Assembly: GCA_001767525.1 (NCBI GenBank)
Contig: MELF01000023.1
Location: 4,682 to 68,681, forward strand
DNA length: 64,000 nt
Reading direction: 5' to 3'
Source of the DNA: Acidobacteria bacterium RIFCSPLOWO2_12_FULL_68_19
GTDB lineage: Bacteria > Acidobacteriota > Vicinamibacteria > Vicinamibacterales > UBA2999
A program made the position numbers and the translations under genes. Under the pieces are notes generated by a model that worked only from the letters and a program-made list of their open reading frames with translations, had not been told where the DNA came from and did no database searches. Positions 2,275-19,915 of this stretch are shown here, in pieces (position 1 is the stretch's first letter; every line of letters starts with the position of its first letter).

Positions 2275-2343
2275 ACATTGCCAGCGGCCCGAAAATGGCT
2301 GGAGAACGCTCGCCGCCCGAGCTGGACTTGCTGACCTCGATGG

Positions 2344-3846: not shown

Positions 3847-4055
3847 CACGTCGCGCGCGAATCGCACCAATGCCTCGCCGACTCGAGCGCCGTTGCGGTC
3901 GCGACCGGTCCTGAAGTGCCTCTGCGGCTATGCCTTTCGAAGACGACCGAGCGTCGCGCTTGCGAAGCGGGCATAACGAGCTCGGACTGTAGGAAGCCTC
4001 GCCACACCCGTCCACTCGCCGACATTGACGGACTCGAGATGATCGTTCTGGGCAC

Positions 4056-4409
4056 TCAGTCGCTCGGCAGGATACGAAAGGGCTTCCGGCCTCTGATTCT
4101 GTAGGCTGAGAAATCCGTACGATCCGTCGTGAACACGGAGGTGCAATCGAGCTCCTCGGCCAACGCGACAAGCGTGGCATCCGCAAAGTCCATCGGCAGA
4201 TCGGCATGCTTGTCGAGCAGCTTCCGGACACGCTGTAATGACGCCGTGCTCGAAGGAACGAGAAGCGCGCCCCCGGAGAGGAAGAAATCGACGCAGGCGG
4301 CGCGTCCGCCTTGAACACCGGCCAAGAGGTAAGTGGCTTCAGCCAGCACTGCAGCGGGCAAGGTGCTCGCGGGTCGGCTCGCGACTCCGACCTTCGACGT
4401 GTGCCCCAC
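4056..4409 (-). pseudogene. PIN-domain (VapC-like) toxin lacking its N-terminal segment
   Basis: LPAAVLAEATYLL...LLDKHADLPMDFADATLVALAEELDCTSVFTTDRTDFSAYR...FRILP matches the middle and C-terminus of PIN toxins. An in-frame TGA at 4425-4427 lies just upstream of the GTG, so the usual N-terminal xxDTxxL acidic motif has no room. No antitoxin ORF is seen upstream. Confidence 0.5.
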
Positions 4410-4629
4410 ACGCGATCGAGGAAGTCAATCGTCAACCGGCCCTGACGGTGCACGGGCTGCGCACCGCAGTACGTGGCACCCTGCACGGGCCGATGTTGTT
4501 ACTGGTGAATCGGCAAGGGCGTGAGCTGTTTCTCACGGCGCCCGCATCATGACGGCCTGCAGGTCGGCGCGGTCGATCCGGGGCGGCGACGACCTTGTCG
4601 CAGGGTCGAAGCTGGAATAGATTGCCGTC

Positions 4630-6096: not shown

Positions 6097-6332
6097 GCAA
6101 ATCTGCCTCTGGACCACCCGTGCGCATGCCGTTCATGGCGCGCGCCGCGCGCTGCTCGCCGGGGAGTTGCCGCCGTGTGACGCCACGGCCCGAGCGCCGC
6201 TCGATCCGGTGCGACGTCCTCTCGAGCGGCCGGCATCTCGGTTTGCGCCAGGCCGCGTTCTCTCTGTACAATTCGAGGTTCCTGCCCTGCGGGTGTTTGC
6301 CCTCTAGCGCGGACCGACACGCGACCAGGTAC

Positions 6333-6406
6333 TGGGAGGTCGTTCAACGGTAGGACACGTGGCTCTGGACCACGTTATCGGGGTTCGAATCCCTGCCTCC
6401 CAGCCA
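6333..6406 (+). tRNA. tRNA-Gln (anticodon CUG), CCA encoded
   Basis: 74 nt folded by hand. Acceptor stem TGGGAGG/CCTCCCA, D stem GTTC/GGAC, anticodon stem CGTGG/CCACG with loop CTCTGGA (anticodon CTG), T stem CGGGG/CCCTG with loop TTCGAAT. U1-A72 pair and G73 discriminator are as in bacterial tRNA-Gln. Confidence 0.95.
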
Positions 6407-6773
6407 CTAAGTCGTTCACTAGCAACAACTTACGGCACGAGAGATCCGGCCCGATCAACTGGTCTTGCGCCACATTATCAGTCTCGGTATCGACACCCGA
6501 GCAACCGCTTGACGTTCAAGGGGTTAGCGAACGCCAGGGCCACGTTCGCCGATTCGCCCAGAGACACGAATGAGACACGCGGCAAATTCGATCGCCGTCC
6601 CGCGCGCGCGCCCACACCTCGTCCTGTCCGATGCCGGCGGGCGATGAGCTCGGGCCTGGATGCTGGGGCGACGATGCTATCGTCGTCGGGCCGGGGCGAT
6701 ATCGATGCGCCAAGGATGAAGGCCATCGAGAACGGATGTCGCCATGGAGCGGGCTGTCACGCGCTGAACTGCG

Positions 6774-7412
6774 ATGTCGGATTTGGTTCATCAGGTCACT
6801 GTCGACCACTCCGAGAGGCGCTCGGCATTACTGGATGCTGTGCGTCGGACCGGCGCGTTCCAGGTGCGGATGGCGCGTCTCGCGACCGGTGACTATCTGA
6901 TTGGGAACGATGTGCTCATCGAGCGGAAGTCGGTCGCCGACTTGGCCGCCTCTCTCGTCGACGGACGCCTGTTTCCGCAGGTGGCACGACTGGCTCACAG
7001 CGGCTACCGATCCCTTCTGCTGATCGAAGGCTCGGCGACCACGTCGATTCCTGATGTGCATCCCCACTCGCTCGAAGGCGCACTCGTGTCGATCACGGCC
7101 ATGTGGCGCGTGCCGGTGCTGCATTCGTCCGATGCGGAACAGTCGGCGCGCATGCTGCACTTCCTTGCCGATCAGGTGCGTGGACCGCACGAGCGAGTTC
7201 TGCGGCGATTCGACCAGAAGCCGAAACGCCTCGCATCGAGAAAGCTCTTCCTGTTGCAGGGGCTACCAGGCGTCGGTCCTGCTCTCGCGCAGCGCCTGCT
7301 CGACCACTTCGGGACCATCGAACGCGTCTTCACGGCTGACGCGTCCGCACTGGGTGAGGTCCGAGGTGTCGGTCCCAGGAAGGCCGCCCGCATCCGGGAA
7401 CTCGTTCTCTGA
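6774..7412 (+). CDS. ERCC4/XPF-type nuclease with C-terminal (HhH)2, copy 1
   Basis: 212 aa. Has the ERCC4 catalytic signature LATGDYLIGNDVLIERKSVADLAASL (GDY...ERKxxxD). The C-terminus has two helix-hairpin-helix motifs: LQGLPGVGPALAQRLLDHFG and VRGVGPRKAARIRELV. Confidence 0.8.
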   Translation: MSDLVHQVTVDHSERRSALLDAVRRTGAFQVRMARLATGDYLIGNDVLIERKSVADLAASLVDGRLFPQVARLAHSGYRSLLLIEGSATTSIPDVHPHSLEGALVSITAMWRVPVLHSSDAEQSARMLHFLADQVRGPHERVLRRFDQKPKRLASRKLFLLQGLPGVGPALAQRLLDHFGTIERVFTADASALGEVRGVGPRKAARIRELVL

Positions 7413-7475
7413 CGTGGGGCACGGCTCTATCGATCGGTTGCCTCTCCATCGCTGACGATCTATATTGATCGAGAA

Positions 7476-7889
7476 GTGGCCACACGGCGCAGCCTGCCCG
7501 TCCGAGGGCGATCGCTCCTGAAGGGCGGGCGCAAGCGTGTCCTCGTCGTTTTGTTCGTCCCGAGCGTCGAGCGTGATGGGAGGGCTCCCATCGACCAGGA
7601 TCGCTGGGTCGACGCTGCCTTGGACATGTTCGGGCGTGTGTTTGGAGGGGCGACCGCCTATCCAAAGGCGAAGGGTGTCTGGCGCGACGATGAACGAAAC
7701 GGCGCACTGGTGAAAGACGAACCAGTCGTCGTCCATTGCTACACGACGCGCGCCGACATCGAGGACGCCAGACACCTGGCGGAACTCGGGACCTTCTGCA
7801 GAACGATGGGCCGCGACGCCCGTCAGGGCGAGGTTGGGTTGGTCATTGGAGACGAGTATTTTGCGATCCGTGAGTTCACGGAGGAGTGA
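7476..7889 (+). CDS. hypothetical protein (137 aa), second gene of ERCC4 cassette
   Basis: GTG start. Non-Arg-biased composition: VLVVLFVPSVERDGRAPIDQDRWVDAALDMFGRVFGGATAYPKAKGVWRDDERNGALVKDEPVVVHCY. Tightly spaced with flanking same-strand genes. No family recognised. Confidence 0.55.
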   Translation: MATRRSLPVRGRSLLKGGRKRVLVVLFVPSVERDGRAPIDQDRWVDAALDMFGRVFGGATAYPKAKGVWRDDERNGALVKDEPVVVHCYTTRADIEDARHLAELGTFCRTMGRDARQGEVGLVIGDEYFAIREFTEE

Positions 7890-7892
7890 CAG

Positions 7893-8258
7893 ATGAAGTC
7901 GAGCCTCGACATGAACAAGATCGCTCGTGGGCTTCGCGCGGAACGCAAGGGCACAGTCTCGGTCGGCGGCGGCTACTTCGGGGCGATGCAGCTGCTGGCG
8001 GAGATCGAGGCGCGCTTCCGCGTGCCGATGGGCGGAGGGCGGGCAACGGATCCCGAGTGGACCGAACGACGGCTGGTCCCGTTGGCCCCCCGAACCCTCA
8101 AGCGTCTCGAGGCGATCACGGAAGGCGTCAGAGCGCGGAGCGGCGTGAGCGTGGAACCGATGCAGCTCGCCGCCTTGTTGCTCGAGAAGACGACCGAACA
8201 GCTCAACGACGATGACGTGAGGGATCTAGTCACTGGCCAGCGGCGTGCGAGTCGGTGA
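7893..8258 (+). CDS. hypothetical protein (121 aa), third gene of ERCC4 cassette
   Basis: ATG 4 nt after the previous stop, with GGAGGAG upstream. Sequence includes MNKIARGLRAERKGTVSVGGGYFGAMQLLAEIEARFRVPMGGGRATDPEWTERRLVPLAPRTLKRLEAI. No family recognised. Confidence 0.55.
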   Translation: MKSSLDMNKIARGLRAERKGTVSVGGGYFGAMQLLAEIEARFRVPMGGGRATDPEWTERRLVPLAPRTLKRLEAITEGVRARSGVSVEPMQLAALLLEKTTEQLNDDDVRDLVTGQRRASR

Positions 8259-8262
8259 TTGA

Positions 8263-8577
8263 GGGCAAACGCCCACGCATCTGGATGCCACAGACATTCA
8301 AGTTCAGGCCGACGCTGGACCATGTTCACGAACCGCAAGAGACCAGCTCGACACGGATGAGGCCGAAATCCGCCGGCGATATGCCACACGCCTCTTTCAG
8401 CAGCGCCTGCACCAGCGCGAGTTCCGCGAGCGCGTCGTGCGGGCGTACCAGCATCACTGTGCAGTCTGCCGCCTGCGGCGCGATGAGCTTCTCGACGCGG
8501 CTCACATCGTACTGAAGCGGTGGCGTCGAACACTCGAACAAAACCGAGCGGAGCGGCACGGAGCGCCACCGGTCCGC
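8263..8577 (+). pseudogene. HNH (HNH_2-type restriction-endonuclease-like) fragment, truncated at the islet junction
   Basis: In-frame LDTDEAEIRRRYATRLFQQRLHQREFRERVVRAYQHHCAVCRLRRDELLDAAHIV matches the FR..V..AY...CAvC......L.AAHI core of HNH_2 nucleases. There is no N-terminal domain or start codon. Homology is lost after AAHIV, and the frame runs into the tRNA-fragment repeat. Confidence 0.5.
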
Positions 8578-8625
8578 GGCTCTTTGGACCACGTTATCGG
8601 GGTTCGAATCCCTGCCTCACCGCCA
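8578..8625 (+). repeat. degenerate copy of tRNA-Gln 3-prime half (att-like)
   Basis: GGCTCTTTGGACCACGTTATCGGGGTTCGAATCCCTGCCTCACCGCCA versus tRNA 6361-6406: a 2-nt insertion in the anticodon-loop part and two substitutions in the acceptor arm. No 5-prime half upstream. Confidence 0.75.
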
Positions 8626-8636
8626 TTTAAGTTGTT

Positions 8637-8888
8637 CTATCCATTCACATTTCCTCCGAGCTCAGGCCCCGTCTCCCCCAGGTCTCCAAGATTCCTGCAG
8701 GACGAGGGCTGATCCAGCAGCCGAATCGCACCGTCCAGCGCTGCCGGACTCAGGTGCATGTACCGCTGTGTCATGCCGAGCTCACCGTCGCAGACGCTGA
8801 TGACGTCGAGCACACGTTCGAGTTCCGATCGATGGTCGTGCCCACAGGTCACGCCCTGTATGCGCGAGAGCGCGTGCCTGAGGGGCAA
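8637..8888 (-). pseudogene. tyrosine-recombinase (integrase) C-terminal remnant
   Basis: GHDHRSELERVLDVISVCDGELGMTQRYMHLSPAALDGAIRLLD resembles the box II region (H.LRH ... LGH....T..Y.HL) that carries the catalytic Tyr. There is no room for the remaining roughly 300 aa. It lies directly after an att-like repeat. Confidence 0.45.
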
Positions 8889-9230
8889 GAGGGCTACGAG
8901 TTCTCCGTCCTCGGCGACTTCGACGCCAACGCGTGGGACCTATTCAGGTTGCTGTACGACCGGATTCAGCACGGACTCGCCGTCCGCCACGTGGAACGAG
9001 GCGAGCTCGGCTGGCGGATCACGGACGCACGTCATCTCGTCGGCCGCATCACGTGGGATCCTGACCGCGCCGGGGAGGTTCCGCTGTTGGTCATCGACGG
9101 CCGACCCTTCACCTGGGATCAGGTGGGCCGGATGTTGATGTCCTTCGAGGGCTTCACGCTTCGGGCGTTCGTGGACGACAGCATCGAGGTCATCGGAGGC
9201 CCACTTCTGGACGAAGAGGGGAAAGTCTGA
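8754..9230 (+). CDS. hypothetical protein
   Basis: GYEFSVLGDFDANAWDLFRLLYDRIQHGL...LVGRITWDPDRAGEVPLLVIDGRPFTWDQVGRMLMSFEGFTLRAFVDD looks protein-like. The N-terminal about 26 codons overlap the integrase remnant on the other strand, so ATG 8832 is the more likely start. Confidence 0.45.
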   Translation: MHVPLCHAELTVADADDVEHTFEFRSMVVPTGHALYARERVPEGQEGYEFSVLGDFDANAWDLFRLLYDRIQHGLAVRHVERGELGWRITDARHLVGRITWDPDRAGEVPLLVIDGRPFTWDQVGRMLMSFEGFTLRAFVDDSIEVIGGPLLDEEGKV

Positions 9231-9296
9231 ATCGGGAATCCTTTCCGCTTGATTCTCGTCTGGCGACGATGACATCGTCGTCGTGCGGAATCGGAT

Positions 9297-9944
9297 ATGG
9301 ACGCGCGAAGAACGAAAGGGTCGCTTGCTTCAAGGATCACTACGTCGCCGGGCATCCCTGACTCTGTCCATCAGCTCGCTGTCGACCACTCCGAGCGCGA
9401 CTCGGTATTGCTGGACGCGGTGCGTCGGAGCGGCTGGTTCGACGTGCGGATGGCACGTCTGGCTACCGGCGATTACTTGGTGAACGGCGAAGTGCTGGTC
9501 GAGCGAAAGACCATTCGTGACCTGGTCGCCTCGCTCGTTGACGGTCGCCTGTTTCCGCAAGTGGCACGATTGGCTCACAGCCCACACCGATCGCTGCTCC
9601 TGATCGAAGGTCCGACGCCTTTCTCGCTGCCGGACGTGCATCACCACTCGGTGGAAGGAGCACTCGTTTCGATCGCCGCCATGTGGCGGCTTCCCGTGCT
9701 GCAATCATCCGACTCGGAACAATCGACCCGCATGCTGCGGTTCCTGGCGGAGCAGGTGCGCGGACCACAGGAGCGAATCCTGCGGCGATTCGACAGGAAG
9801 CCGAAACGTCTTGCGTCGAGGCGGCTTTTCCTGCTGCAGGGGCTGCCAGGAGTGGGACCCGCGCTCGCACACCGGCTCCTCTGCCACTTCGGTTCAATCG
9901 AGCGGATCGTCACCGTGGACGCCGCCACACTGGCCGAGGTGTGA
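9297..9944 (+). CDS. ERCC4/XPF-type nuclease, copy 2, ended by an in-frame TGA before the last HhH
   Basis: Paralog of 6774-7412 (RMARLATGDYLVNGEVLVERKTIRDLVASLVDGRLFPQVARLAHS...LLQGLPGVGPALAHRLLCHFG). TGA at 9942-9944 sits where copy 1 has CGA (Arg). The homologous GIGARTAARIRELV continues in frame up to 10049. Confidence 0.7.
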   Translation: MDARRTKGSLASRITTSPGIPDSVHQLAVDHSERDSVLLDAVRRSGWFDVRMARLATGDYLVNGEVLVERKTIRDLVASLVDGRLFPQVARLAHSPHRSLLLIEGPTPFSLPDVHHHSVEGALVSIAAMWRLPVLQSSDSEQSTRMLRFLAEQVRGPQERILRRFDRKPKRLASRRLFLLQGLPGVGPALAHRLLCHFGSIERIVTVDAATLAEV

Positions 9945-10306
9945 GGCATCGGCGCAAGAACGGCGGCGCGTATTCGAGAGCTCGTTGGCAGTCCATCTCC
10001 GGGCGGCTCTATCCACCACCTCGCACAGGAGGACCAAACACGCGGCTGACGAACGTCGAGCGGAGACCACATAGCGATGCGAAAGAAACCAGTCGGCACC
10101 AGAAAACCGAAGGCGCTTCGCGAGCGTGTCGAGGCTCTGAGGAGAGCCGGCGTGATCGCGTGGAGCGGACGGCGGCTGCGACCAGCGAAGCCCGCGGGGC
10201 AAGGTCCGTGGCATCAGGACTATCGCCGACGTGCTTGTCGAGAACCGCGAGTAACGGTGTCTTCAACGCGAGTGCTTCGGTTAGCCGTCGTCCTGGAGGA
10301 GGTCCA

Positions 10307-10816
10307 TCACGAGCGATCTGTCGATGTCGCATTCGCTGGTTCTGCGCCTTCTCCCACGTGCGCGAGCGATTCGCGAATCAGAGCGGGTGCGATGCGGAAG
10401 CCCTCCGCGACGAGCGCGTCAAGCACGGGCTTGAGTGCAGGGAGCAATGCCCGTCGTCGCGCGTGAACGAGCACGCCGAGTGTTCCCCGCACGGCGAGAC
10501 CACGCGCCTGTGCCACCTTCCGGCCCACTCGCTCGTCGATCAGAAGGAGATCGGCCCGAAGAGATTCGGCGACGAGTATCGCCGCGGTCTCTCCTGGATC
10601 CAGCCCAAGGTCTGACTGTGGCGAGGGCTCATCGACGACACGCAACCATCGCGCATGGCGGAGCGCGTCAACGCCAGGCGCGGACGGACGCCGTTCCACG
10701 GCTTCATCCCACACCGCTCTTGGCACCACGACGTCCTCAAAGAGCGCTGGAAGGAGGTGAAGGGCTCCGACCCGCGAGAGATAGATCAGGGGCGAGCTGT
10801 CTGCGACGACCAGCAC
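10307..10816 (-). CDS. DUF3368 PIN-like toxin
   Basis: MLVVADSSPLIYLSRVGALHLLPALFEDVVVPRAVWDE...DPGETAAILVAESLRADLLLIDERVGRKVAQARGLAVRGTLGVLV is the typical DUF3368/COG2405 pattern. It lies downstream of a UPF0175 partner. Confidence 0.8.
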   Translation of the reverse strand: MLVVADSSPLIYLSRVGALHLLPALFEDVVVPRAVWDEAVERRPSAPGVDALRHARWLRVVDEPSPQSDLGLDPGETAAILVAESLRADLLLIDERVGRKVAQARGLAVRGTLGVLVHARRRALLPALKPVLDALVAEGFRIAPALIRESLAHVGEGAEPANATSTDRS

Positions 10817-10822
10817 GCGGCC

Positions 10823-11077
10823 TCAGCGCTGGCTCTTCGGAATGGCTCCGAGCTCTTGCCTGAACTCTTCGACGTCGTGATCGATGGCGTAGAGGCCGTG
10901 CCGGCCGGCCTCGATGAGGAAGTCGTCGAGCGTCATGTCGAGTGCGCGTGCCGCGGAGGCACGAGTCAATCGGCCGGCTCGTACTTCGTCGATGACCAGG
11001 AGAAGACGCGCGCGCCTGGCCAATTCGTCGGTCGGCTGCTCAGAGAGCGGGCCCGGAATCTCGACTGTGATCTCCAT
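10823..11077 (-). CDS. UPF0175-family antitoxin
   Basis: MEITVEIPGPLSEQPTDELARRARLLLVIDEVRAGRLTRASAARALDMTLDDFLIEAGRHGL fits the UPF0175/COG2886 pattern. Start taken at internal ATG 11077, not the track start 11272. Confidence 0.75.
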   Translation of the reverse strand: MEITVEIPGPLSEQPTDELARRARLLLVIDEVRAGRLTRASAARALDMTLDDFLIEAGRHGLYAIDHDVEEFRQELGAIPKSQR

Positions 11078-11280
11078 GGAACTTCTCATTCCGATTGTAG
11101 CCGTACCATCCGCTCCCAGCGGCATCCTGAAGCGAGGCTGCACAGAGCGACAGGGCCTGAGACACAATGAGACATTTTGTGCGTGAACAAAGCAGAACGG
11201 AGGGGAGCCTACCGAAGCGATAACGTCGAAAACTGGAACAAGACAGAGCGGGGCGGCACGGGCCGCACCCATTCACCGCT

Positions 11281-11324
11281 CTCTGGACCACGTTATCGGG
11301 GTTCGAATCCCTGCCTCCCAGCCA
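11281..11324 (+). repeat. exact copy of tRNA-Gln 3-prime half (att-like)
   Basis: 44/44 nt identical to 6363-6406 (anticodon loop through CCA). Upstream sequence cannot form the anticodon stem or 5-prime half. Confidence 0.9.
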
Positions 11325-11616
11325 AGTTCGAACCCCGGGTCGCACACCGACAGAACATCAATCATTTCGAACACTTCCACGCTCGAATACATGCAGTCGG
11401 ACTGGGAACGTCAAACCGATCTTGGACACTTTGGCGACTAAGAACTCAGCCAATTGTCGAAATTCCTAATGTTGTCGCCGGGCCGGTCCGCTTCAGCACT
11501 CGCGAGAATTGACCCGCGTCTGCTCGCCGAGAATGGACCACTCGCAGCAGGCTCGCATCGTGTATCTGGGGCTGACGTGCGTGCATGCTATCGTATCGAA
11601 TCTGTCAGGAGGCGCT

Positions 11617-12402
11617 GTGCGCTACGCCGAGTTCCGTGATCGACTCGAAGATGCGCTTCAGGAGGCGGGGCTCTTCTTCCAAGGCGCTGATCGGCACGTC
11701 GAGACGATTGACCTCGCGCACGCCGCACGGAGCTGGAAGGTTCATCTCTTCGGAGCGGCACTTCCGAGCGCAGATCCCTTCCACGTTTCGGCGGAGATCG
11801 GTTTTGAGTGGAGTCCCGTCGATGCGGCTCGCGCGTACACCACCGAAGAAGACCTCCTCACGGAACTCGTGGGCAGGAGGCGGCGACCGATCAGGACGGA
11901 GCGCAGGTGGACACGGATAGACCTTTCGCTTCACGCGAGCCTCCCGTACGGTTCGACGACGTCGATGCCGGACTCCCGCGTTCTCGGCTCGTGGACGGCT
12001 TCTGTTGTAGAGAAGGCTGATGCTGCCTTCACCGACATCGAGGAGAAGAAAGGGCGCGTCGTGGCCGTCCTCGGCGGGCACGGGGACGTCGAAGTGCACG
12101 CGCACTGCAAACCTGACGGCGTCATTTCGCTGAGGGCGGTGGCCATCTCCGGCTTCCGCTTGGTTCGTGTGCCCCGGGTCTGGGACGATCCCGAGCGCCG
12201 CGAGGCCGAGAGGGACCTCGCCGACCTTGGTGGACTGGCGCGGAGGCTCAAGACCGCACTCGATGAGTGGACGAGGAGTGTCTCGGAACTCGCGACCTGG
12301 ATCCGGTACTCGCCGCCGCCACCGGAAGCGAAACCAGCCGAACCGTGGGTCGAGGATCAATCCGAGGACGACAATGACAGCGGGCCGGAGACGACGCACT
12401 GA
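11617..12402 (+). CDS. hypothetical protein (261 aa), convergent with SWIM-SNF2 helicase
   Basis: GTG at 11617 preceded by AGGAGG (11607-11612). Sequence includes VRYAEFRDRLEDALQEAGLFF and an acidic, Pro-rich C-terminus. No family recognised. Confidence 0.5.
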   Translation: MRYAEFRDRLEDALQEAGLFFQGADRHVETIDLAHAARSWKVHLFGAALPSADPFHVSAEIGFEWSPVDAARAYTTEEDLLTELVGRRRRPIRTERRWTRIDLSLHASLPYGSTTSMPDSRVLGSWTASVVEKADAAFTDIEEKKGRVVAVLGGHGDVEVHAHCKPDGVISLRAVAISGFRLVRVPRVWDDPERREAERDLADLGGLARRLKTALDEWTRSVSELATWIRYSPPPPEAKPAEPWVEDQSEDDNDSGPETTH

Positions 12403-12503
12403 CTGAGAGCGCGCCGATAGCGGCGTTGTTGCGCTGGTTCGCCGTGTGCGGCTGCCTCGATGAAGCGGCGCGACAGTTTCTCTGCGCGATCGATCTTGCT
12501 CAA

Positions 12504-15263
12504 CTACGCGTTCGGTCGAACGCGCCGAGTGGGACCTCTTCCGGTGGCCGGCGGTGTGGCGGCGGCCTGGAGCAGCTGCGCCATCCCGGAGAAGAGCGCT
12601 CCCAACGTCGACGCGGCTTCAGGCGGCGCCTCGATGACCAATCCGCCGCTGGCGGTACGTCGCACGGTCACGCCGGCCACGAGACGCTGGATGGCGGCAG
12701 CCGAATCCGCTGGCTCGGGCGCGTTGGCGATTGTGGCGAGCGCCACGTCATGCGACTCGTCCCCTGCCGCCACAACCGCCTCGATCTCGCGCTCGGCACC
12801 ATCGTTCTCGGCCACGCTGACATCCTCAGCGCGGCTCGGCGCGGGCGAGATCGCCGGCACGACGATACGCTCGATGCGGGAGAGAAAACTTCCGGAGCGC
12901 TCGAAGACCACCGCGTCGGTCGTCCCGTCGAACAGTCCAGTGAAGAGCGCCTGCTTGGACCCGACGAGCTCGGCGATCCGTGACTCGATTCCCGGCTCGC
13001 TCACCAGGTTGTAGACGTCAATCGGGCGGCGCTGTCCGAGACGGTAGATCCGGCCGATGCGCTGCTCGAGCACGGCGGGATTCCAGGGAAGCTCGATGTT
13101 GATGCAGGCGCTCGCGGCGCGTTGCAGGTTGAGGCCGACGCCGCCGGCGTCGGTTGCGAAGAGCACGCGGCAGGCGGGGTCGTCGTGGAAGTCGACGATG
13201 TTCTGCGTGCGCCGCTTCTGGCCCTCCTCGCCGGTGAAGAACGCCGGTCTGACGCCCTCTCGCGAGAGCTGGTCGCGCGTCGCCCAGTGCGCGAGTCGGA
13301 GCATCCGCCGCCACTGGCTGAACACCACCACCTTGCGCCCTTCGGTCAGCGCGAGCTGACCGATCAGCTCACGCAGTTCCACCAGTTTCGGGCTCGCCAG
13401 TCCCCGAAGCGTGGAGTCGGTGGGCCGCTCGATCCGCGACAGGTCGGGCCAGACCTGTTCGAAGCGCAGCTGGGCCAGGCCGTTGGCGATGATGCGCTGC
13501 GTGGTGAGCAGCGTCATCAGACGGAGGAACTCCGCCTGCGTGAGCGGACGCCGCTTTGCGCGGCCGAGGATCTGCGCGATCGGCATGGTGAGCGCGTCGT
13601 GCTCGTCGATCTGCTCCGCGGTCATCTCGATGGGAATCCGCGTGTCGGTCCGCGCGGGCAGCTGCGAAAGCACCTCTCGCCGCACGCGCCGGACCATGCA
13701 CACGGCTAGACGGGTCCGCAGCGTCTCGAGGTTCCGGGCGCCGCTGATCTCCGTTGTTCCATCCACGGGCGTGGTGTGCCACGCGGCCAGGCGCCATTTC
13801 GGCTCCAGCGCCAGGTCGTCGACCCACTCGACAATCGACGCGAGCTCGTCGAGCCGGTTCTCCATCGGTGTGCCGGTCAGCACGAGACGGTACGGTGGAT
13901 CCAGGCGCTTCACGGTCAGCGCGGTCTTCGTCGCCCAGTTCTTGATCCGCTGGGCCTCGTCGAGCACTACGATGTCGGGCGCCCATTCGCGAACGACGTC
14001 GATGTCGCGAATGAGCTGCTCGTAGTTGCCCAGGAGGAATCCGCGCCGACACGCCTCGAACGCCGCGCAGCGCTGGGAGGGTGTCCCCTCGACGACGGTG
14101 GCCGGAGCGTCGGTGAAGGCCTGCCACTCACGAAGCCACTGCGGCTTGAGCGCGGCGGGGACAACGATGAGGCCACGGCGGACGCGGCCAGCATGCCAAA
14201 GAGCGTGGCAGGCGGCAATCGCCTGCGCGGTCTTGCCGAGACCCATATCGTCGGCAAGGAGCAGGCGTCCCCGCACGAAGAACCGGTCAACGCCGTCGCG
14301 CTGATAGGGATAGAGCGATTGCTTGAGGGTGTGCAGCGCGCGGTGCAGGCGCGTCCGGGTGCTCGCGGTCTGCACCTGACGCGCGAGCCGCACGCGCTCT
14401 TGCTGCAGCAGTGCGTGCAGTGCCGGCTCGCTGTTGCCGTCGCTGAGCACGCCGAGCAACCGATCCACGAGCGTCCGCCGCTGCTGCAGCCCTTCGGGAA
14501 TCGCGGCGGTCCAGCCACGTCCCTTCGTTGAGCGCAGCCAGCGCCGCAGACCGCGATCGGGCACACCGTCGACCCAGCGCACGCGCGCCAGCCAGTGGCC
14601 AAGGCCGGTCAGCGGGCGGACGGGATCCCACCGCAACGGTGCCGGCGCGGGAGCCTCCTCGCGTTCGATATCCACCCGACGCCGCTTCGAGACCACGTCC
14701 TCGAGGACGGCGACGAGGTGCTTGCACAGCCCGAGCGAGTTCCGGAGGAAATCGGCGCAGTCGCAACTGCCGTCGAGCGGCTCGATCCGACGGAGGAGCG
14801 TGCGGTACGGGCGTGCGCGCGACCCACGGCGCCTGGTCGCGTACAGACCCAGCAGCCGGCTCCGTGGACGTCCGACGATCTGAATCTCGTCCACGTGAGT
14901 GGACGCGCAGCGGCGAAGCACCGCCTCGAGCGCGTCGCGCTGGATGGGCCAGTCGCCTCCCTGCGTGACCGACAGGACGTGGCGCACGATGCGCTCGGCC
15001 GGCACGCCGCCCGTTCGCCGGCGCGCGCGCGCGAGCAGCGTCTGGTAGGCCTCGCTCTCGGTGATGGCGATCGTCTCGGGCTGAGATGAACGACTCTGCA
15101 TATCTTCCCCGTTGTCGGAAGTTGGGATCGGTGTCGGCGAGTCGACGTATTCTTCCACAGACGCGATAAACGGAGCTGGGACGTCGTTTTGAACTCCGAT
15201 ATCGACGGTGCGAGGTGGCCGCATGGCGAAGAAGCGTCGAGCACAGGCCGTGGGCATGAACAA
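12504..15263 (-). CDS. SNF2-family helicase with N-terminal SWIM zinc finger
   Basis: SWIM motif CDCADFLRNSLGLCKH. Helicase motifs LLADDMGLGKTAQAIA (I), VLDEAQRIKN (II), LTGTPMENRLDEL (III), LFATDAGGVGLNLQ (V), ELPWNPAVLEQRIGRIYRLGQ (VI). The N-terminal boundary is uncertain (see the frameshift finding); ATG at 15101 is an alternative start. Confidence 0.85.
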   Translation of the reverse strand: MFMPTACARRFFAMRPPRTVDIGVQNDVPAPFIASVEEYVDSPTPIPTSDNGEDMQSRSSQPETIAITESEAYQTLLARARRRTGGVPAERIVRHVLSVTQGGDWPIQRDALEAVLRRCASTHVDEIQIVGRPRSRLLGLYATRRRGSRARPYRTLLRRIEPLDGSCDCADFLRNSLGLCKHLVAVLEDVVSKRRRVDIEREEAPAPAPLRWDPVRPLTGLGHWLARVRWVDGVPDRGLRRWLRSTKGRGWTAAIPEGLQQRRTLVDRLLGVLSDGNSEPALHALLQQERVRLARQVQTASTRTRLHRALHTLKQSLYPYQRDGVDRFFVRGRLLLADDMGLGKTAQAIAACHALWHAGRVRRGLIVVPAALKPQWLREWQAFTDAPATVVEGTPSQRCAAFEACRRGFLLGNYEQLIRDIDVVREWAPDIVVLDEAQRIKNWATKTALTVKRLDPPYRLVLTGTPMENRLDELASIVEWVDDLALEPKWRLAAWHTTPVDGTTEISGARNLETLRTRLAVCMVRRVRREVLSQLPARTDTRIPIEMTAEQIDEHDALTMPIAQILGRAKRRPLTQAEFLRLMTLLTTQRIIANGLAQLRFEQVWPDLSRIERPTDSTLRGLASPKLVELRELIGQLALTEGRKVVVFSQWRRMLRLAHWATRDQLSREGVRPAFFTGEEGQKRRTQNIVDFHDDPACRVLFATDAGGVGLNLQRAASACINIELPWNPAVLEQRIGRIYRLGQRRPIDVYNLVSEPGIESRIAELVGSKQALFTGLFDGTTDAVVFERSGSFLSRIERIVVPAISPAPSRAEDVSVAENDGAEREIEAVVAAGDESHDVALATIANAPEPADSAAAIQRLVAGVTVRRTASGGLVIEAPPEAASTLGALFSGMAQLLQAAATPPATGRGPTRRVRPNA

Positions 15264-15264
15264 C

Positions 15265-15429
15265 GACGGACAAGCGGGTCGCTGCGTTGACCGGCAGCAC
15301 GACGCCCTGAGGTTTGCTGAAGAGGACGGTGGCGTAACAATCGCCGAGGGTGGTTGTTGACGTCACCTCACACGGTGTGCTGTGACCGAGCCGATCGAGG
15401 AGCTTACGAGTGCGGCGTACGACGACCAT
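15265..15429 (-). pseudogene. DUF6933-like leader ORF in a different frame from, and abutting, the SNF2 ORF
   Basis: MVVVRRTRKLLDRLGHSTPCEVTSTTTLGDCYATVLFSKPQGVVLPVNAATRLSV resembles the DUF6933 N-terminus as I remember it (..KLL..LG....STT.LGDWYA......q.lvL.v...trL.vv.P). After about 15265 this frame becomes Arg-rich nonsense, while the similarity seems to continue in the SNF2 frame (MPTACARRFFAM...VPAPFIASVEEYV). Confidence 0.4.
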
Positions 15430-15601
15430 GGGTCACTCGTCCCCGTTGGTCGGGGCGCACCGGACCGGCCGCTGCGCCCTCAGGCGTCGGGGCTGGCGGG
15501 CGTTCCATGCAGGCGTCAGCGTCCGAGCGCGCAGTAGCCCCGGCAACTTCGTGATCTCGATGTTGCAAACTACGGCACCTTGCGATGCGCCGTCAGGCGC
15601 G

Positions 15602-15898
15602 TCAGCGGTCGATTCTCGATCGCCAGTAATCGGGGCGGCGGCTTTGATGGGCGAGGACCTCGACGCGCACCACATCGGGCGGCAGGCTGTAGATCAGCGA
15701 GAACGGGAAGCGCTGGAGACCATACTTGCGTAGATCGGCGTCGACGGAGATTCCAATCTCTGGATGCGCCAGCAGAATGTCGAGCGCCCGTCGAACATCC
15801 GCGCCGAAACGCTGGCCGAGGCCAGAGACCTGATGCTCGTAGTATGCCGCCGCCTCAATGAATTCCAACTCCGCTTCCGGGTGGAATTCAAGTCTCAT
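15602..15898 (-). CDS. ParE/RelE-family type II toxin
   Basis: 98 aa. MRLEFHPEAELEFIEAAAYYEHQVSGLGQRF...RFPFSLIYSLPPDVVRVEVLAHQSRRPDYW is the plasmid-stabilisation ParE-like pattern. A 4-nt overlap joins it to the upstream antitoxin. Confidence 0.8.
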   Translation of the reverse strand: MRLEFHPEAELEFIEAAAYYEHQVSGLGQRFGADVRRALDILLAHPEIGISVDADLRKYGLQRFPFSLIYSLPPDVVRVEVLAHQSRRPDYWRSRIDR

Positions 15899-16128
15899 CG
15901 ATTCAAGCGCGCGCGAAGGTTTTCGAAGACACGGTCGCCCGAAACGGGCTGGACCTTCCCGTCAATAACCTCGCGGTGTCGCCGTTGGGCCTCGTCGATC
16001 CACGCCAGCTCAACGTCGGCCTCGACTGGTCCGTCGAGTTCGGCAAGCAGTGCGCGAATGAGGCCCGTCCTGTCGTCCGAGTCCAACGATCGGATCTGTG
16101 CTTCCAGTTCGGCAACAACTCTCGACAT
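15895..16128 (-). CDS. addiction-module antitoxin (putative addiction module component type)
   Basis: 77 aa. VAELEAQIRSLDSDDRTGLIRALLAELDGP...AWIDEAQRRHREVIDGKVQPVSGDRVFENLRARL is typical of the small helical antitoxins paired with ParE/RelE toxins. Confidence 0.7.
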   Translation of the reverse strand: MSRVVAELEAQIRSLDSDDRTGLIRALLAELDGPVEADVELAWIDEAQRRHREVIDGKVQPVSGDRVFENLRARLNR

Positions 16129-16468
16129 GTCACCTCCGTACAGCCAGCGTTGGCCGTCTCCATATTCTACAGCCGTGACCCACGGTGGCAGATTGACCGT
16201 CCCCCTGGCATTCCGGCCGTGCGCCCATCGGCTTGATCTACTCCTTGTGGGAGACGTTCCGAGTGCACTCCGGAGATTCCCTTCGATGAAACTCGGGGAA
16301 GCCCTTTACGTCGAGTGTCATTTCGAGTGTCATTGCGCTGGCAAAATACGAAAACGGACGCGAACGGACGAAAGCCGACGACAGAAGGCGAAAACGCTAA
16401 ATCGCTGGCTTCTCGCGAGTTCCAGCGACACGGCCCATGTCTATTGGTGTTTCGTGAGGTTGGCTCGG

Positions 16469-16489
16469 CGAATCCCTGCCTCCCAGCCA
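16469..16489 (+). repeat. short copy of tRNA-Gln 3-prime end (last 21 nt)
   Basis: CGAATCCCTGCCTCCCAGCCA is identical to 6386-6406. Upstream sequence diverges. Confidence 0.6.
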
Positions 16490-16742
16490 AATACGCCTCT
16501 GACTGTCAGTCATTTAGTCGCGGGTGATCGCGCCATCCCCGATTACGTGGTCTGCGAACACATTCTGAACGTTTCACGGCTGCGTTGGTAAACGTCACCA
16601 CGAAGTTGCTGGACGTCAAGGAGTTGGACGGTTCCGTCACGACGGTCCGATTGAGTAGGGACCTCGAGCTCTTGACGAAAAGTTGACGAGCTGGCCGCTA
16701 TGACTGCGTCCGTACGCGGTCCGGTCAGTCCCTCCGGTATTC

Positions 16743-18731
16743 TTGGGCGCGGCATTGACCAAACCATCTGCACGCGCGTCCGCGTACTACTCCAGACCCG
16801 TGGATCTCTTTCTCGCTACCGATCCGTACGAGGTGCTTGGTGCTCTGAGTGCGGCACACATCTACGACCTCGAAGTCGAGCAGCGTCAGGCGTGGGAAGA
16901 GGAGTTGAACATCCTAAGAGTCGCTCTACGGGGGCTATCTGGCACTCTCTGTCTCGAATTCGACGTCCCGCGCCTTGGCAGCCGAATCGACGCCGTGCTG
17001 GTTTCTGGGCCAGCAATCTTTCCCATCGAGTTCAAGTGCGGAGAACGTCAGTTCCGTCTCCCCGACTACAACCAGGCGTGGGACTACGCGTTGGACCTCA
17101 AGAACTTTCACGCTGCGAGTCACGACGCACCGATTTGTCCCGTCCTCGTGGCGACGGAATCTGACACCGCCGATGAGACCTGGCAGGGCCCATATCCGGA
17201 CGGCGTGCGGCCGCCGTATCGTTGCGGCGCTCGCCACCTCGGCGATGTTCTTCAACGTGGTCTCGCACTGACCAGCGGACCTCCGATCGACGGCGAGGCT
17301 TGGGGAGCCGCTCCATATCAGCCGACGCCAACCATCATTGAGGCGGCCCGGGCTCTCTACGCGCGACACTCGGTCGAGGCGATTTCGCGCAGCGACGCCG
17401 GCGCCAAGAACCTACGCGTCACGTCAGCCAGCGTCGAGGAGATCATCGAGCGCTCCCGAGGCGACCGTGACAAGTGTGTCGTCTTCGTCACGGGCGTACC
17501 CGGCGCCGGGAAGACGCTCGTGGGCTTGAACGTGGCGACACGGCGGCGGATGTTGGGAGAAGCCCGTGCGGTCTATTTGTCAGGAAACGGTCCGCTGGTG
17601 GCTGTTCTTCAGGAGGCGCTCACGCGTGACGAACTCGCGCGCATCGGACACACCGAACGGAAGGGGGCGGTGCGCCAGAGGGTGAAGCCGTTCATTCAGA
17701 ACGTCCACCACTTCCGGGATGAGGGCGTGCGCACGACCATTGCCCCTTACGACCACGTGGTCATCTTTGATGAAGCACAGCGCGCGTGGACGCGGGCGAA
17801 GACCGCCGACTTCATGAAGCGTCGGAAGAAGATTGCGACTTTCGACCAGTCCGAACCGGAGTTCCTTATTTCCTATCTGGACCGGCACGATACGTGGGCG
17901 GTTGTCATCTGTCTCGTTGGAGGCGGGCAGGAGATCCACACGGGCGAGGCGGGGATCGGCGAATGGCTCGAGGCCGTTCGGCTCCACTTCCCGCACTGGC
18001 GTGTTCATGTTTCACCGAATCTCACCGACTCTGAATACGCGGCGCAGTCACCTCTGGAGCGCCTCGCCGCCGTGGCGTCGATCGTCTGGGACGATCGACT
18101 CCATCTCGCAACGTCAATGCGATCGTTCCGGGCGGAGAAGGTGTCCGCGTTCGTCAAGGCTGTTCTCGACAGTGACGTAGTCTCGGCCCGAACACTGCTC
18201 CGGGAGGTTACGCGGCGGTATCCGATTGTCGTCACGCGCGACCTGGCACGCGCGAAGACATGGATCCGCAGCCACGCTCGTGGTTCCGAGCGCTACGGGC
18301 TGGTCGCATCGTCGCAGGCCCAACGCCTCAAGCCACACGCGATCGATGTCCGCGTCAACGTCGATCCGGTCCAGTGGTTCCTGAACGACAGGCATGACAC
18401 GCGATCGAGCTATTACCTGGAGGATGCCGCAACCGAATTTCAGGTGCAGGGTCTCGAGCTCGACTGGGTCTGCGTGACGTGGGATGCAGATTTGCGACGC
18501 CATGCGGAGTCATGGCGCTACCACTCGTTTCGCGGAGACGGATGGACGACAGTCCACAAGGAAGACCGGAAGCGCTATCTGCTGAACGCCTACCGCGTTC
18601 TGTTGACACGGGCGCGCCAGGGAATGGTCATCTTCGTGCCGCCTGGCGACGAGTCGGACCCGACTCGTGCTCCGTCGTTTTACGACGACACCTACCAGTA
18701 CCTCACCGGCCTTGGAGTCGCCGAGGTCTGA
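16743..18731 (+). CDS. DUF2075-family P-loop NTPase with N-terminal PD-(D/E)xK-like nuclease motif
   Basis: 662 aa. N-terminus RIDAVLVSGPAIFPIEFKCGE (a D...E.K restriction-endonuclease-like motif) and QAWDYALDLKNFH. Walker A VTGVPGAGKTLVG and Walker B VVIFDEAQRAW. ICLVGGGQEIHTGEAG is typical of DUF2075. Confidence 0.8.
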   Translation: MGAALTKPSARASAYYSRPVDLFLATDPYEVLGALSAAHIYDLEVEQRQAWEEELNILRVALRGLSGTLCLEFDVPRLGSRIDAVLVSGPAIFPIEFKCGERQFRLPDYNQAWDYALDLKNFHAASHDAPICPVLVATESDTADETWQGPYPDGVRPPYRCGARHLGDVLQRGLALTSGPPIDGEAWGAAPYQPTPTIIEAARALYARHSVEAISRSDAGAKNLRVTSASVEEIIERSRGDRDKCVVFVTGVPGAGKTLVGLNVATRRRMLGEARAVYLSGNGPLVAVLQEALTRDELARIGHTERKGAVRQRVKPFIQNVHHFRDEGVRTTIAPYDHVVIFDEAQRAWTRAKTADFMKRRKKIATFDQSEPEFLISYLDRHDTWAVVICLVGGGQEIHTGEAGIGEWLEAVRLHFPHWRVHVSPNLTDSEYAAQSPLERLAAVASIVWDDRLHLATSMRSFRAEKVSAFVKAVLDSDVVSARTLLREVTRRYPIVVTRDLARAKTWIRSHARGSERYGLVASSQAQRLKPHAIDVRVNVDPVQWFLNDRHDTRSSYYLEDAATEFQVQGLELDWVCVTWDADLRRHAESWRYHSFRGDGWTTVHKEDRKRYLLNAYRVLLTRARQGMVIFVPPGDESDPTRAPSFYDDTYQYLTGLGVAEV

Positions 18732-18745
18732 CTGAATCGGGCCGT

Positions 18746-19213
18746 TCAACGCCTTAATAGACGCTCATCGAAATCGAATGGATGTGGATCGCCGACGCGA
18801 ACGGCTCCGAAATCCTGGTGTCGCGGATTCAACAGGTAGTTCAACTCCGATTCAATGACAGCGCTCGGCACTTTCAGGACCGCTGACCTGCCCGCCTTAA
18901 CCCATTCGTCACCAATCAGCTGGAGCTCGGGCGGAGCCGGATACGAGCGCCAGTTAGGGGGAAGGCGCTTCGAGTCGAGACGCTCCACAAGGGCTTCATC
19001 GAACGTACAGGCGATGAGGACGTACGCACTCAGGATCGACCGGCGCCGCAGGTGGACTAACAGCTCCAACGTCGCTAACGCCGCGCTCTCGGACGCGTAG
19101 ACGAGGGGCGTGCCTGGTGAATTCCAGCGTCCGCCTTCGAGACGAGCGCCCTCGCCATCGAAAGCGTTCGCGGCGTGTCTGGCCTTGACGATCCGCCAAG
19201 CCGTAATCGCCAC
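18746..19213 (-). CDS. RES-domain toxin
   Basis: AWRIVKARHAANAFDGEGARLEGGRWNSPGTPLVYASESAALATLELLVH...VLKVPSAVI carries the R-E-S residues pattern. GTG at 19213 shares one base with the TAG of the upstream antitoxin. The track N-terminal extension is rejected. Confidence 0.85.
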   Translation of the reverse strand: MAITAWRIVKARHAANAFDGEGARLEGGRWNSPGTPLVYASESAALATLELLVHLRRRSILSAYVLIACTFDEALVERLDSKRLPPNWRSYPAPPELQLIGDEWVKAGRSAVLKVPSAVIESELNYLLNPRHQDFGAVRVGDPHPFDFDERLLRR

Positions 19214-19731
19214 TACGAGAAGACGCCGTGCTCGAGGCGGCCGACCAGCCGCTCCACCTCTTGAACACCTAGCTCGGTACGCGCAAGGTCCAAAGGAATA
19301 CCGCCGCCCAAGGCCGGCTGTGCTGTTGTGAGCCATTCCACTGCGGCATCGCGATCGCCTTCAAAGAGCTGGAGCGCCTTTCCGAACAGTCTGGCGGCCC
19401 GTAGAAGGCGATCGGATTCATCCGAAAGGAATCGGCTGTCTGTTTTGCGGCGCGTCAGCGTGCGGCGTGGAATGTTGATGAGGTCGATAAGGCGATCAAC
19501 CGACAGCGAAGTGTTTCGCTGGAATCGCTCGAACGCGCGATACGGGATGCCGCGCTGAACCGCTCGGAGCAAGCCTGGCGCGTCGAACGTATCGAGGCCC
19601 AACAGGACGACGTACGCGTGCGGCCCGGGCTGACCCGCTCGGAGCTGCTGCCGAAAGCGATCGAGGTCCTTGGTGGTCTCGGTTCCCTCATGAAGCGCGG
19701 CGGCTGCGGTCTTGGCCATATGGCCATCCAT
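19213..19731 (-). CDS. Xre/MbcA/ParS-type antitoxin (DUF2384) of the RES toxin
   Basis: GIPYRAFERFQRNTSLSVDRLIDLINIPRRTLTRRK...SDRLLRAARLFGKALQLFEGDRDAAVEWLTTAQPALGGGIPLDLARTELGVQEVERLVGRLEHGVF. Start at ATG 19731 or 19719. Confidence 0.85.
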   Translation of the reverse strand: MDGHMAKTAAAALHEGTETTKDLDRFRQQLRAGQPGPHAYVVLLGLDTFDAPGLLRAVQRGIPYRAFERFQRNTSLSVDRLIDLINIPRRTLTRRKTDSRFLSDESDRLLRAARLFGKALQLFEGDRDAAVEWLTTAQPALGGGIPLDLARTELGVQEVERLVGRLEHGVFS

Positions 19732-19871
19732 TATGCGCCATTTGCGCCCTTGACGAACACTTGACAGATTGCGCACGAAGGGGCCGTCCCCGACCGGAGA
19801 CGCCCGACGATCTGCCCGATTTTCCTAAGGAAACCGAAGCAACCCAGAATCACCCACGTCGATTGGGCCGC

Positions 19872-19915
19872 CTCTGGACCGCGTTATCGGGGTTCGAATC
19901 CCTGCCTCCCAGCCA
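19872..19915 (+). repeat. copy of tRNA-Gln 3-prime half, right boundary of the islet array
   Basis: 43/44 nt identical to 6363-6406 (A to G at 19881). No 5-prime half; preceding bases cannot pair as an anticodon stem. Confidence 0.9.

Follow-up and report, generated by a model that had tools for sequence, protein, structure and literature searches.

The XPF-type nucleases closest in design to the genes described here are the short-form XPF of archaea (PDB 2bgw/2bhn) and, within Hef, the C-terminal nuclease-(HhH)2 region (1j22, 1x2i), which have the same order of an ERCC4 nuclease domain and tandem helix-hairpin-helix (HhH) motifs within ~210 aa. In a 2012 survey of PD-(D/E)XK nucleases, the XPF/Mus81/Hef family (PF02732) was assigned to Archaea and Eukaryota, with no horizontal gene transfer observed (PMC3424549). 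We analyzed two genes of this family in a 64-kb stretch of the genome of a soil/groundwater acidobacterium (Acidobacteria bacterium RIFCSPLOWO2_12_FULL_68_19, contig MELF01000023.1; hereafter the window), where they lie on two small islets stacked at a tRNA-Gln gene. The setting differs from that of archaeal XPF and Hef in that the host is a bacterium, the genes are carried by tRNA-linked mobile islets instead of a core repair locus, and a private palindrome is located upstream.

An earlier reading of the window, referred to here as the original prediction, had described the family as only sporadic in bacteria. This is a fair description, but full-length ERCC4-HhH genes, 32-40% identical to ours, are already annotated on 155 PLSDB plasmids, 136 of which are Pseudomonas megaplasmids; thus, XPF genes on bacterial mobile elements are not new. 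The plasmid genes (Pseudomonas megaplasmids, Polaromonas JS666, Sulfuricystis pSTJ1, Variovorax and Hydrogenophaga) are likewise short, mobile and uncharacterized. One of them lies inside the PRTRC region of Polaromonas JS666 plasmid 1, and DinG is encoded nearby on pSTJ1. In contrast to the genes of the window, they reside on large plasmids, not on 2-5 kb tRNA islets, and have other neighbors. The literature that we searched held no study of the function of a bacterial XPF homologue. Together with the plasmid homologues, the loci described here reveal a bacterial XPF branch that is almost wholly on mobile DNA.

The islets themselves resemble two described kinds of elements. Cis-mobilizable elements (CIMEs) are integrase-less elements that keep attL and attR and accrete in tandem at tRNA genes (Guedon et al. 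2017, PMC5704250), and tycheposon islands contain remnants separated by partial tRNAs (Hackl et al., bioRxiv 10.1101/2020.12.28.424599). Like these, the islets of the window stand in tandem at a tRNA gene with partial tRNA copies between them, the newer pushing the older outward. Judged by their retained tRNA repeats and the loss of the integrase, they match the definition of CIMEs and of tandem accretion. They differ from CIMEs and tycheposon remnants in that the integrase-less form is common and recurrent, includes a hallmark ERCC4 gene and a putative operator, and occurs in acidobacterial hosts. No parent integrative and conjugative element, integrative and mobilizable element or tycheposon with both an integrase and ERCC4 was found. 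What is new is the acidobacterial clade, the hallmark status of the gene in integrase-less tRNA mini-islets and the conserved palindrome. The array also shows how stacked modules without an integrase make up tRNA-linked islands of defense and toxin-antitoxin (TA) genes in Acidobacteria, a soil phylum of major importance that has been little studied.

Both open reading frames (ORFs) were present where the original prediction had placed them, and all of the stretches that it quoted as shared were found in the protein alignment. When the stop codon of copy 2 was masked, the two proteins were 75% identical over 211 residues without a gap (E=1e-115), and their DNA was ~76% identical. Pfam ERCC4 (PF02732, cut-off 24 bits) matched copy 1 with E=3.5e-26 (92 bits) and copy 2 with E=2.5e-22 (80 bits). 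HHH_5 was matched with E=2.4e-12 in copy 1 and 4.1e-13 in copy 2; copy 1 exceeded the cut-off for both HHH_5 and HHH_2, as did copy 2 with the stop codon read through. Among NCBIfam models, copy 1 matched euryarchaeal Hef in its C-terminal nuclease part (7.9e-52) and also archaeal Xpf (1e-31). A PDB search matched the whole of copy 1 to Aeropyrum pernix XPF (2bgw/2bhn; 1e-27), and also to the separate nuclease and HhH domains of Pyrococcus (Pfu) Hef (1e-22 for Hef 1j22). The predicted XPF/Mus81/Hef layout is therefore borne out by Pfam, NCBIfam and the match to A. pernix XPF.

The catalytic signature GDY...ERKxxxD (GDXn-ERKX3-D), kept as in A. pernix XPF, is unbroken in both copies and reads GDYLVNGEVLVERKTIRD in copy 2. 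It was found in 29 of the 30 ERCC4 copies checked, L034 being the exception (survey loci carry the prefix L), and is invariant in the alignment of relatives. The dN/dS ratio between copies 1 and 2 was 0.20 at a dS of 0.83, which indicates long-term purifying selection on the ERCC4 gene. Unlike Hef, the copies have no N-terminal helicase: of the 781 positions of the Hef model, copy 1 covers no more than 572-775, leaving no superfamily 2 helicase, and its score on this model is far below the equivalog cut-off. The lack of a helicase domain makes both copies the short form of XPF. By eye, the C-terminus of copy 1 (...AARIRELVL) directly follows the last HhH helix, and no PCNA-binding tail such as that of crenarchaeal XPF was seen. 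To our knowledge, bacteria do not have PCNA. From family membership, the product would be a homodimeric structure-specific endonuclease, which may cut branched DNA such as 3′ flaps, forks and nicked junctions through the unbroken GDY...ERKxxxD site.

Copy 2 is terminated by TGA at 9942-9944, opposite a CGA codon in the alignment with copy 1. In-frame homology to copy 1 continues past this TGA until 9986; the remainder is an open frame that ends with a stop at 10047-10049, the ancestral stop codon shared with an intact 250-aa orthologue. This orthologue is encoded in locus L002 (groundwater acidobacterial metagenome-assembled genome, JACPCS010000112), in which the orthologous islet directly adjoins gltX-tRNA-Gln and has CGA at the critical codon; besides the stop, the two genes differ by only 8 synonymous and 6 non-synonymous changes. 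The window locus is contained in ENA assembly ERZ28563660 (ANAN16-1_SAMN03842440, scaffold_626), and two further assemblies have the same locus, one identical and the other with 3 SNPs (single-nucleotide polymorphisms) over 13.6 kb. The 215-aa ORF was called in all three ENA assemblies, whose read sets may not be independent. The CGA codon in the 97-98%-identical islet of L002 and the TGA codon in three assemblies show that the nonsense mutation is recent and real, in agreement with the pairwise alignment and with the single-codon CGA-to-TGA change that had been predicted. A sequencing or assembly error at 9942, which would leave copy 2 intact, could explain a lone C>T change relative to an orthologue of 97% identity, but the same 215-aa ORF recurs in assemblies of which one has SNPs elsewhere, and the neighboring DUF gene of islet 2 is damaged as well, which fits decay of the whole islet; such an error is extremely unlikely. 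With the truncation, (HhH)2 loses its second hairpin (GIGxxxA) and final helix, so that the encoded product ends before the second HhH, as predicted, and is probably inactive. Copy 2 was thus probably inactivated recently, in an islet that is decaying throughout. We are nearly certain that both ORFs represent short-form nucleases of the XPF/Hef family and that the nonsense mutation of copy 2 is real.

The only tRNA in the window detected by ARAGORN is tRNA-Gln(CTG). Further copies of its 3′ end at 8567-8625 and 11266-11324 define islets 1 and 2, and a fourth 3′ core of 40 nt lies at 19876-19915, beyond the array of the original prediction. The repeats of the tRNA 3′ end, 40-59 nt in length at 6367, 8586, 11285 and 19876, are the flanking repeats by which a tRNA islet is recognized. 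Three islets are stacked in tandem, bounded by four tRNA-Gln 3′ ends. Because of the position of tRNA-Gln and its repeats, both nuclease genes are near the tRNA-proximal end of an islet, just as had been claimed. Islet 1 is homologous to a four-gene islet of L049 and to L001. Islet 3 encodes two helicases, SNF2/SWIM and SLFN-g3 (SLFN-group-3), and two TA pairs, ParE-like and RES-Xre, and is followed by ordinary genes (solute-binding protein, sulfatase). No integrase ORF was found in islets 1 or 2 or elsewhere in the 64-kb window. An integrase remnant had been predicted beside the nuclease; a candidate exists in islet 2 (ELGMTQRYMHLSPAALDGAIRLLDQ) and none in islet 1. This peptide resembles one adjoining tRNA-Ser in L006, and all five of its weak plasmid matches fall in integrase genes, but its ~25 residues are without statistical support and found none in Pfam or the PDB. 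An Rfam search of window positions 1-22000 and seven related loci detected only tRNA and signal recognition particle RNA.

The two copies had been called paralogous. They are indeed related, but in a neighbor-joining tree they belong to different subclades. Copy 1 is sister to the gene of L001, in which ERCC4 precedes genes for 137-aa and 121-aa proteins as in islet 1; copy 2 falls within a clade that has an upstream DUF7686/7713 gene and, in several members, a downstream PIN/UPF0175 pair. Positions 8775-11330 of the window are 97.4-98.3% identical to L002, whereas gltX of the same loci is only 83% identical, which indicates that islet 2 moved between lineages recently. On the tree and these identities, the copies are xenologues on separately acquired and differently eroded islets, not paralogues arisen in situ. 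Local tandem duplication of the nuclease gene is ruled out by the tree and by the 97%-identical orthologue in L002. Two divergent ERCC4 copies also occur close together in L049 (4137 and 6703, on adjacent islets) and in L080 (3646 and 7586).

A word-indexed protein search yielded 783 ERCC4 relatives, typically of 212 aa, and an exhaustive search of representatives gave 4831 clusters at E<=1e-3. In species-representative genomes we found 24 loci, nearly all in Acidobacteriota/Vicinamibacterales, the exceptions being one in Gemmatimonadales and one in Thermoplasmata (34% identity). A metagenome scan added 80 loci, for a total of 103 unique full-length copies; gene content was taken from pipeline gene calls and tblastn. 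Both flanks extended for 1.5 kb or more in 36 copies, and 17 of these were bracketed by direct repeats of 28-180 nt, 2.1-10.8 kb apart; bracketing repeats were verified as fragments of tRNA-Gln(CTG), tRNA-Ser(GCT), tRNA-Ser(GGA) or tRNA-Asn(GTT). Others had a tRNA within 1-4 kb. The pattern of tRNA-derived repeats seen in the window recurs in L002, L003, L029, L042 and L049, and the tRNA-Gln cores of survey loci are all on the ERCC4 strand, with five in a row in L003. This neighborhood survey, which the original prediction had proposed, returned tRNA-adjacent, repeat-bounded islets with varying neighbors in TA- and defense-rich arrays. ERCC4 is the sole constant gene in more than 100 related tRNA-linked loci, which bears out its description as a signature gene instead of random cargo. 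It is likely that ERCC4 is the hallmark gene of a family of small (2-5 kb), integrase-less tRNA islets of Vicinamibacterales/Acidobacteriota.

None of the inspected repeat-bounded islets encodes an integrase, save a 6.8-kb element of L008, which has tyrosine-recombinase genes and repeats that were not verified as tRNA fragments. Tandem repeats of the form GAGACAC-N2-3-TGAGACA adjoin the tRNA-Gln cores in both arms, and also occur in arms of L002, L029, L034, L036 and L004; the 3-nt-spacer form has its only site in the window at 6561-6577. These are putative arm-binding sites of an integrase, although no cognate integrase was found. The tRNA-fragment repeats and the arm-type repeats fit islets mobilized in trans: with att core and arm-type repeats kept, a tyrosine integrase acting in trans would move the islets in the manner of CIMEs or satellites, and this architecture makes such mobilization probable. 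A prophage origin was dropped, as no ERCC4 relatives were present in GenBank phages or IMG/VR.

Upstream of ERCC4 lies a 15-bp palindrome. Its consensus, GACGATGNCATCGTC, was found upstream of 76 of ~85 evaluable ERCC4 copies, at 50-200 nt or ~650 nt from the start codon, and with <=1 mismatch it occurs in the 64-kb window only at 6670-6684 and 9265-9279. When 938 kb were scanned, the few examined palindromes not upstream of ERCC4 preceded other islet genes (e.g. L016 8566, L032 1915, L118 3714 and L120 3059), and in this set, which is without SOS genes, no site was observed ahead of any evident host gene. The palindrome is a putative operator for a dimeric repressor, and ERCC4 probably has its own promoter, which would be gated by such a repressor on the near-invariant GACGATGNCATCGTC. 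The islets offer a compact testable system, with one nuclease gene, one conserved putative operator, defined att ends and natural knock-outs like copy 2.

We propose that the nuclease would serve as an accessory recombination- or repair-type activity for the element or the host, and not in core nucleotide excision repair; its dimerization and substrate and the role of the operator are what we infer. Recombination or repair is ranked first among the possible roles, ahead of defense or interference and then islet mobility, because it is the only known chemistry of the family and RecQ and DinG neighbors occur; as a role by itself it is put forward tentatively. The combined reading, which joins the identity of the genes, the islet family, mobility in trans and a repair-type role, seems to us slightly the better bet. 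Several observations weigh against it. The hyper-variable surroundings rich in TA and defense genes and the frequent pseudogenes fit defense at least as well; a strict sigma-70 scan detected no promoter at the palindrome; and neither the window nor most islets contain a cognate integrase, which leaves mobilization in trans to be deduced from the att architecture and the 97%-versus-83% contrast. Moreover, the left limit of high identity to L002 is 8775 and not the att core at 8625, so that homologous recombination, and not site-specific transfer, could explain this contrast. An effector of defense or interference, acting alone or with the Zn-ribbon DUF768x protein or a 98-aa protein against branched intermediates of phages, plasmids or a helper, and silenced through the operator until infection or helper induction, would account for the TA- and defense-rich arrays (PIN/UPF0175 (PDC-S70), ParDE, RES-Xre, SNF2, SLFN helicase, Wadjet, type I restriction-modification (RM)), for the fast turnover, horizontal spread and frequent truncated copies (copy 2 of the window, L021, L023, L042), and for the stacking of divergent copies in one array (window, L049). 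Yet PADLOC-DB v2 models matched none of the ERCC4, DUF768x, 137-aa and 121-aa proteins, only PIN-DUF3368 being assigned to PDC-S70; 17 of 53 copies lack any recurrent partner, the literature search returned only an unrelated mention, and we know of no defense role of XPF-family enzymes. We hold a defense role to be possible, if rather doubtful. The nuclease might instead be a gene inducible by DNA damage, with the palindrome as a LexA-type box or that of another damage regulator, aiding the host with cross-links, blocked 3′ ends or stalled forks in the way of plasmid-borne umuDC-type cargo. This would suit the purifying selection, the palindrome close upstream of the start codon, RecQ adjoining ERCC4 in L010 and DinG nearby on pSTJ1, and all characterized family members act in repair or recombination (PMC3424549). 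It is set back by the several divergent copies and pseudogenes per genome, unusual for a useful repair gene, and by the confinement of the palindrome to islets in the 938 kb, though that sequence includes no SOS gene; when the acidobacterial loci were scanned for motifs of LexA, RecA, UvrA, ImuB and the like, no such gene turned up. Nor does the palindrome look like any LexA box that we know of, and we consider SOS control unlikely.

It has also to be asked whether the gene matters to the islets themselves. Were ERCC4 ordinary hitch-hiking cargo, inherited vertically from one ancient tRNA-Gln insertion in Vicinamibacterales, the gltX-tRNA-Gln context common to many loci and the near confinement of the family to one order would be expected, but the islets occur at four different tRNA genes, their position within the array differs between genomes, and their identity of 97-98% far exceeds the 83% of flanking gltX. 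The conserved private putative operator and purifying selection likewise argue for a maintained function, leaving passive cargo very unlikely. At the other extreme, the nuclease could be part of the mobility machinery, either independent of an integrase or hijacking a helper, with the palindrome as its site of action. ERCC4 and the palindrome are the only invariant content of integrase-less islets that spread between genomes; at tRNA-Gln, ERCC4 is always on the tRNA strand and usually within ~1 kb of the left core; and the clades track the target tRNA, Gln-linked copies falling in one and Ser(GGA)- or Asn-linked copies in the other. However, XPF enzymes cut but do not rejoin DNA, a shared core with arm-type repeats is what a tyrosine integrase classically leaves, there are integrase remnants as well as one islet that has recombinase genes, and the orientation to the tRNA differs between the tRNA-Ser loci L006 and L016. 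As the att architecture points to a tyrosine integrase, a direct role in mobility is unlikely, and this version of it has a slight chance at best. A broader form, in which ERCC4 and its private 15-bp palindrome would be the self-contained core of an undescribed class of integrase-less tRNA-targeting mini-elements and the nuclease would have a direct part in the life cycle of the element, be it in excision, in integration or in exploiting or disturbing a helper, appears improbable; if true, it would give a bacterial XPF homologue its first biological role.

Table 1. Features of the tRNA-Gln islet array in the window (positions in nt from the first letter of the window).
Feature	Position	Strand	Remarks
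tRNA-Gln(CTG)	6333..6406	+	ARAGORN, Rfam tRNA; target of integration, at the left edge of the islet array
Islet 1, 2.2 kb	6407..8625		Left arm, ERCC4, 137-aa gene, 121-aa gene, partial right arm, tRNA 3′ fragment
Arm-type tandem repeat GAGACACGAATGAGACA, left arm	6561..6577	+	Conserved in left arms of L002, L029 and L034
15-bp palindrome GACGATGCTATCGTC	6670..6684		Upstream of ERCC4 copy 1; putative operator
ERCC4-(HhH)2 nuclease copy 1	6774..7412	+	Intact, 212 aa, motif GDYLIGNDVLIERKSVAD
137-aa gene	7476..7889	+	Abundant conserved family; 2539 homologues
121-aa gene	7893..8258	+	Customary partner of the 137-aa gene; no family match
Islet 1 right arm (57 nt) and 59-nt tRNA-Gln 3′ fragment	8510..8625	+	Boundary of islets 1 and 2
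Islet 2, 2.7 kb, eroded	8626..11324		Orthologous intact islet directly at tRNA-Gln in L002
Candidate C-terminal remnant of tyrosine integrase, ELGMTQRYMHLSPAALDGAIRLLDQ	8700..8790	-	tblastn to L006, E=1e-7
DUF7686/DUF7713 gene, 5′-truncated	8754..9230	+	L002 homology begins at 8775
15-bp palindrome GACGATGACATCGTC	9265..9279		Upstream of ERCC4 copy 2
ERCC4-(HhH)2 nuclease copy 2	9297..10049	+	Pseudogene or truncated gene; encoded ORF 9297-9944, 215 aa
Remnant segment, 125 nt	10128..10252	+	blastn 80% to L049 5606-5728, plus tblastn matches
PIN-DUF3368 toxin-like gene	10307..10816	-	Pfam; PADLOC candidate PDC-S70
UPF0175 antitoxin-like gene	10823..11272	-	Probably the 84-aa form, 10823-11077
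Arm-type tandem repeat GAGACACAATGAGACA, right arm	11159..11174	+	
Right arm and tRNA-Gln 3′ fragment	11210..11324	+	Boundary of islets 2 and 3
Islet 3, 8.6 kb, without ERCC4	11325..19915		Closes with the fourth tRNA-Gln 3′ fragment, 19876-19915

The fullest islet, of ~4.1 kb (L049, also L041 and L001), consists of core, arm, DUF gene, ERCC4, 137-aa gene, 121-aa gene, arm and core. Compared with this form, islet 1 is without the Zn-ribbon DUF7685/7686/7713 gene, and islet 2 has the PIN/UPF0175 pair in place of the 137-aa and 121-aa genes. These two genes are themselves absent from islet 2, and the segment at 10128-10252 corresponds to a stretch at and just past the 3′ end of an extended 121-aa-family gene in L049. 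No partner is universal, each being present in 41% of copies or fewer: a 98-aa coiled-coil-like ORF accompanies 30 of 73 evaluable copies, the 137-aa gene 16 of 78, the 121-aa gene 14 of 69, the DUF768x gene 14 of 69 and PIN-DUF3368 8 of 65. In 53 copies the flanking sequence sufficed to score every partner, and 17 of them had none of the recurrent partners. PADLOC, PHROGs and NCBIfam returned nothing informative for the partner genes.

Neither the 137-aa nor the 121-aa protein had a significant sequence match in Pfam or the PDB. The AlphaFold2 (AF2) model of the 137-aa protein, of moderate confidence with a pLDDT (predicted local distance difference test) of 73, has a PII/CutA-like predicted fold, and its best PDB match by Foldseek was the phage SAM lyase Svi3-3 (6zm9; E=1e-4, template modeling score about 0.55). 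The two genes form a very abundant, highly conserved module that also occurs without ERCC4 (L043). At the N-terminus of the DUF7685/7686/7713 protein is a CxxC...CxxC zinc ribbon, and two beta-rich domains follow. No PDB fold matched the AF2 model of this protein (pLDDT 81) with E below 0.5, so the predicted fold may be undescribed. Orthologues are 201 aa long with the N-terminal Zn-ribbon (DUF7685), the full-length P0121 being L002 9275-9877; in the window the first ~50 codons are gone and replaced by ~150 nt, which include the minus-strand integrase-like peptide.

In the divergent ERCC4 clade, a conserved ORF of 88-102 aa (MAQITINEGLAWLKTLKKRHEEL...; weak DUF6847 match) lies between the palindrome and ERCC4 in L010, L013, L014 (9396-9704), L077, L108, L118 and L120. 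It is apparently truncated in L037, L039, L041 and L042, where it leaves a conserved, non-coding-looking block. The 'type 2' block upstream of this clade was considered as a structured RNA, which it probably is not since it overlaps the conserved 98-aa ORF. In L010, a gene at 6219-8186 for a RecQ-family helicase (DEAD, Helicase_C, RecQ_Zn_bind, RQC and HRDC) is directly downstream of ERCC4; this recalls the helicase-plus-nuclease arrangement of Hef, here divided between two genes.

At the tRNA-Ser(GGA) and tRNA-Ser(GCT) sites (L016 5541, 8212 and 12857; L006 7806-7846 and 11621-11661), the 5′ part of the tRNA is duplicated and the islets sit 5′ of the tRNA gene, the reverse of the customary 3′-end arrangement. 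The related loci L032, L031 and L033 (Ga0194128_10000789 and others) contain a 10.9-kb ERCC4 element between tRNA-Gln cores (2645-13544), which carries a DnaJ-GrpE-Hsp70-like operon and an 887-aa gene of unknown kind. It is flanked by Wadjet JetA/JetB, type I RM genes and a large serine recombinase, the called gene of which spans the right-hand core. In the window, each of the three islets has a minus-strand gene at its distal end, where islets 2 and 3 have a TA pair. The region left of gltX (1004-4409) is also rich in TA genes, with a ParD-like gene at 1004-1273, HicA/HicB at 1676-2274, a gene at 2344-3846 for a SEC-C protein with a C-terminus of the Xre/MbcA/ParS type and a PIN gene at 4056-4409.

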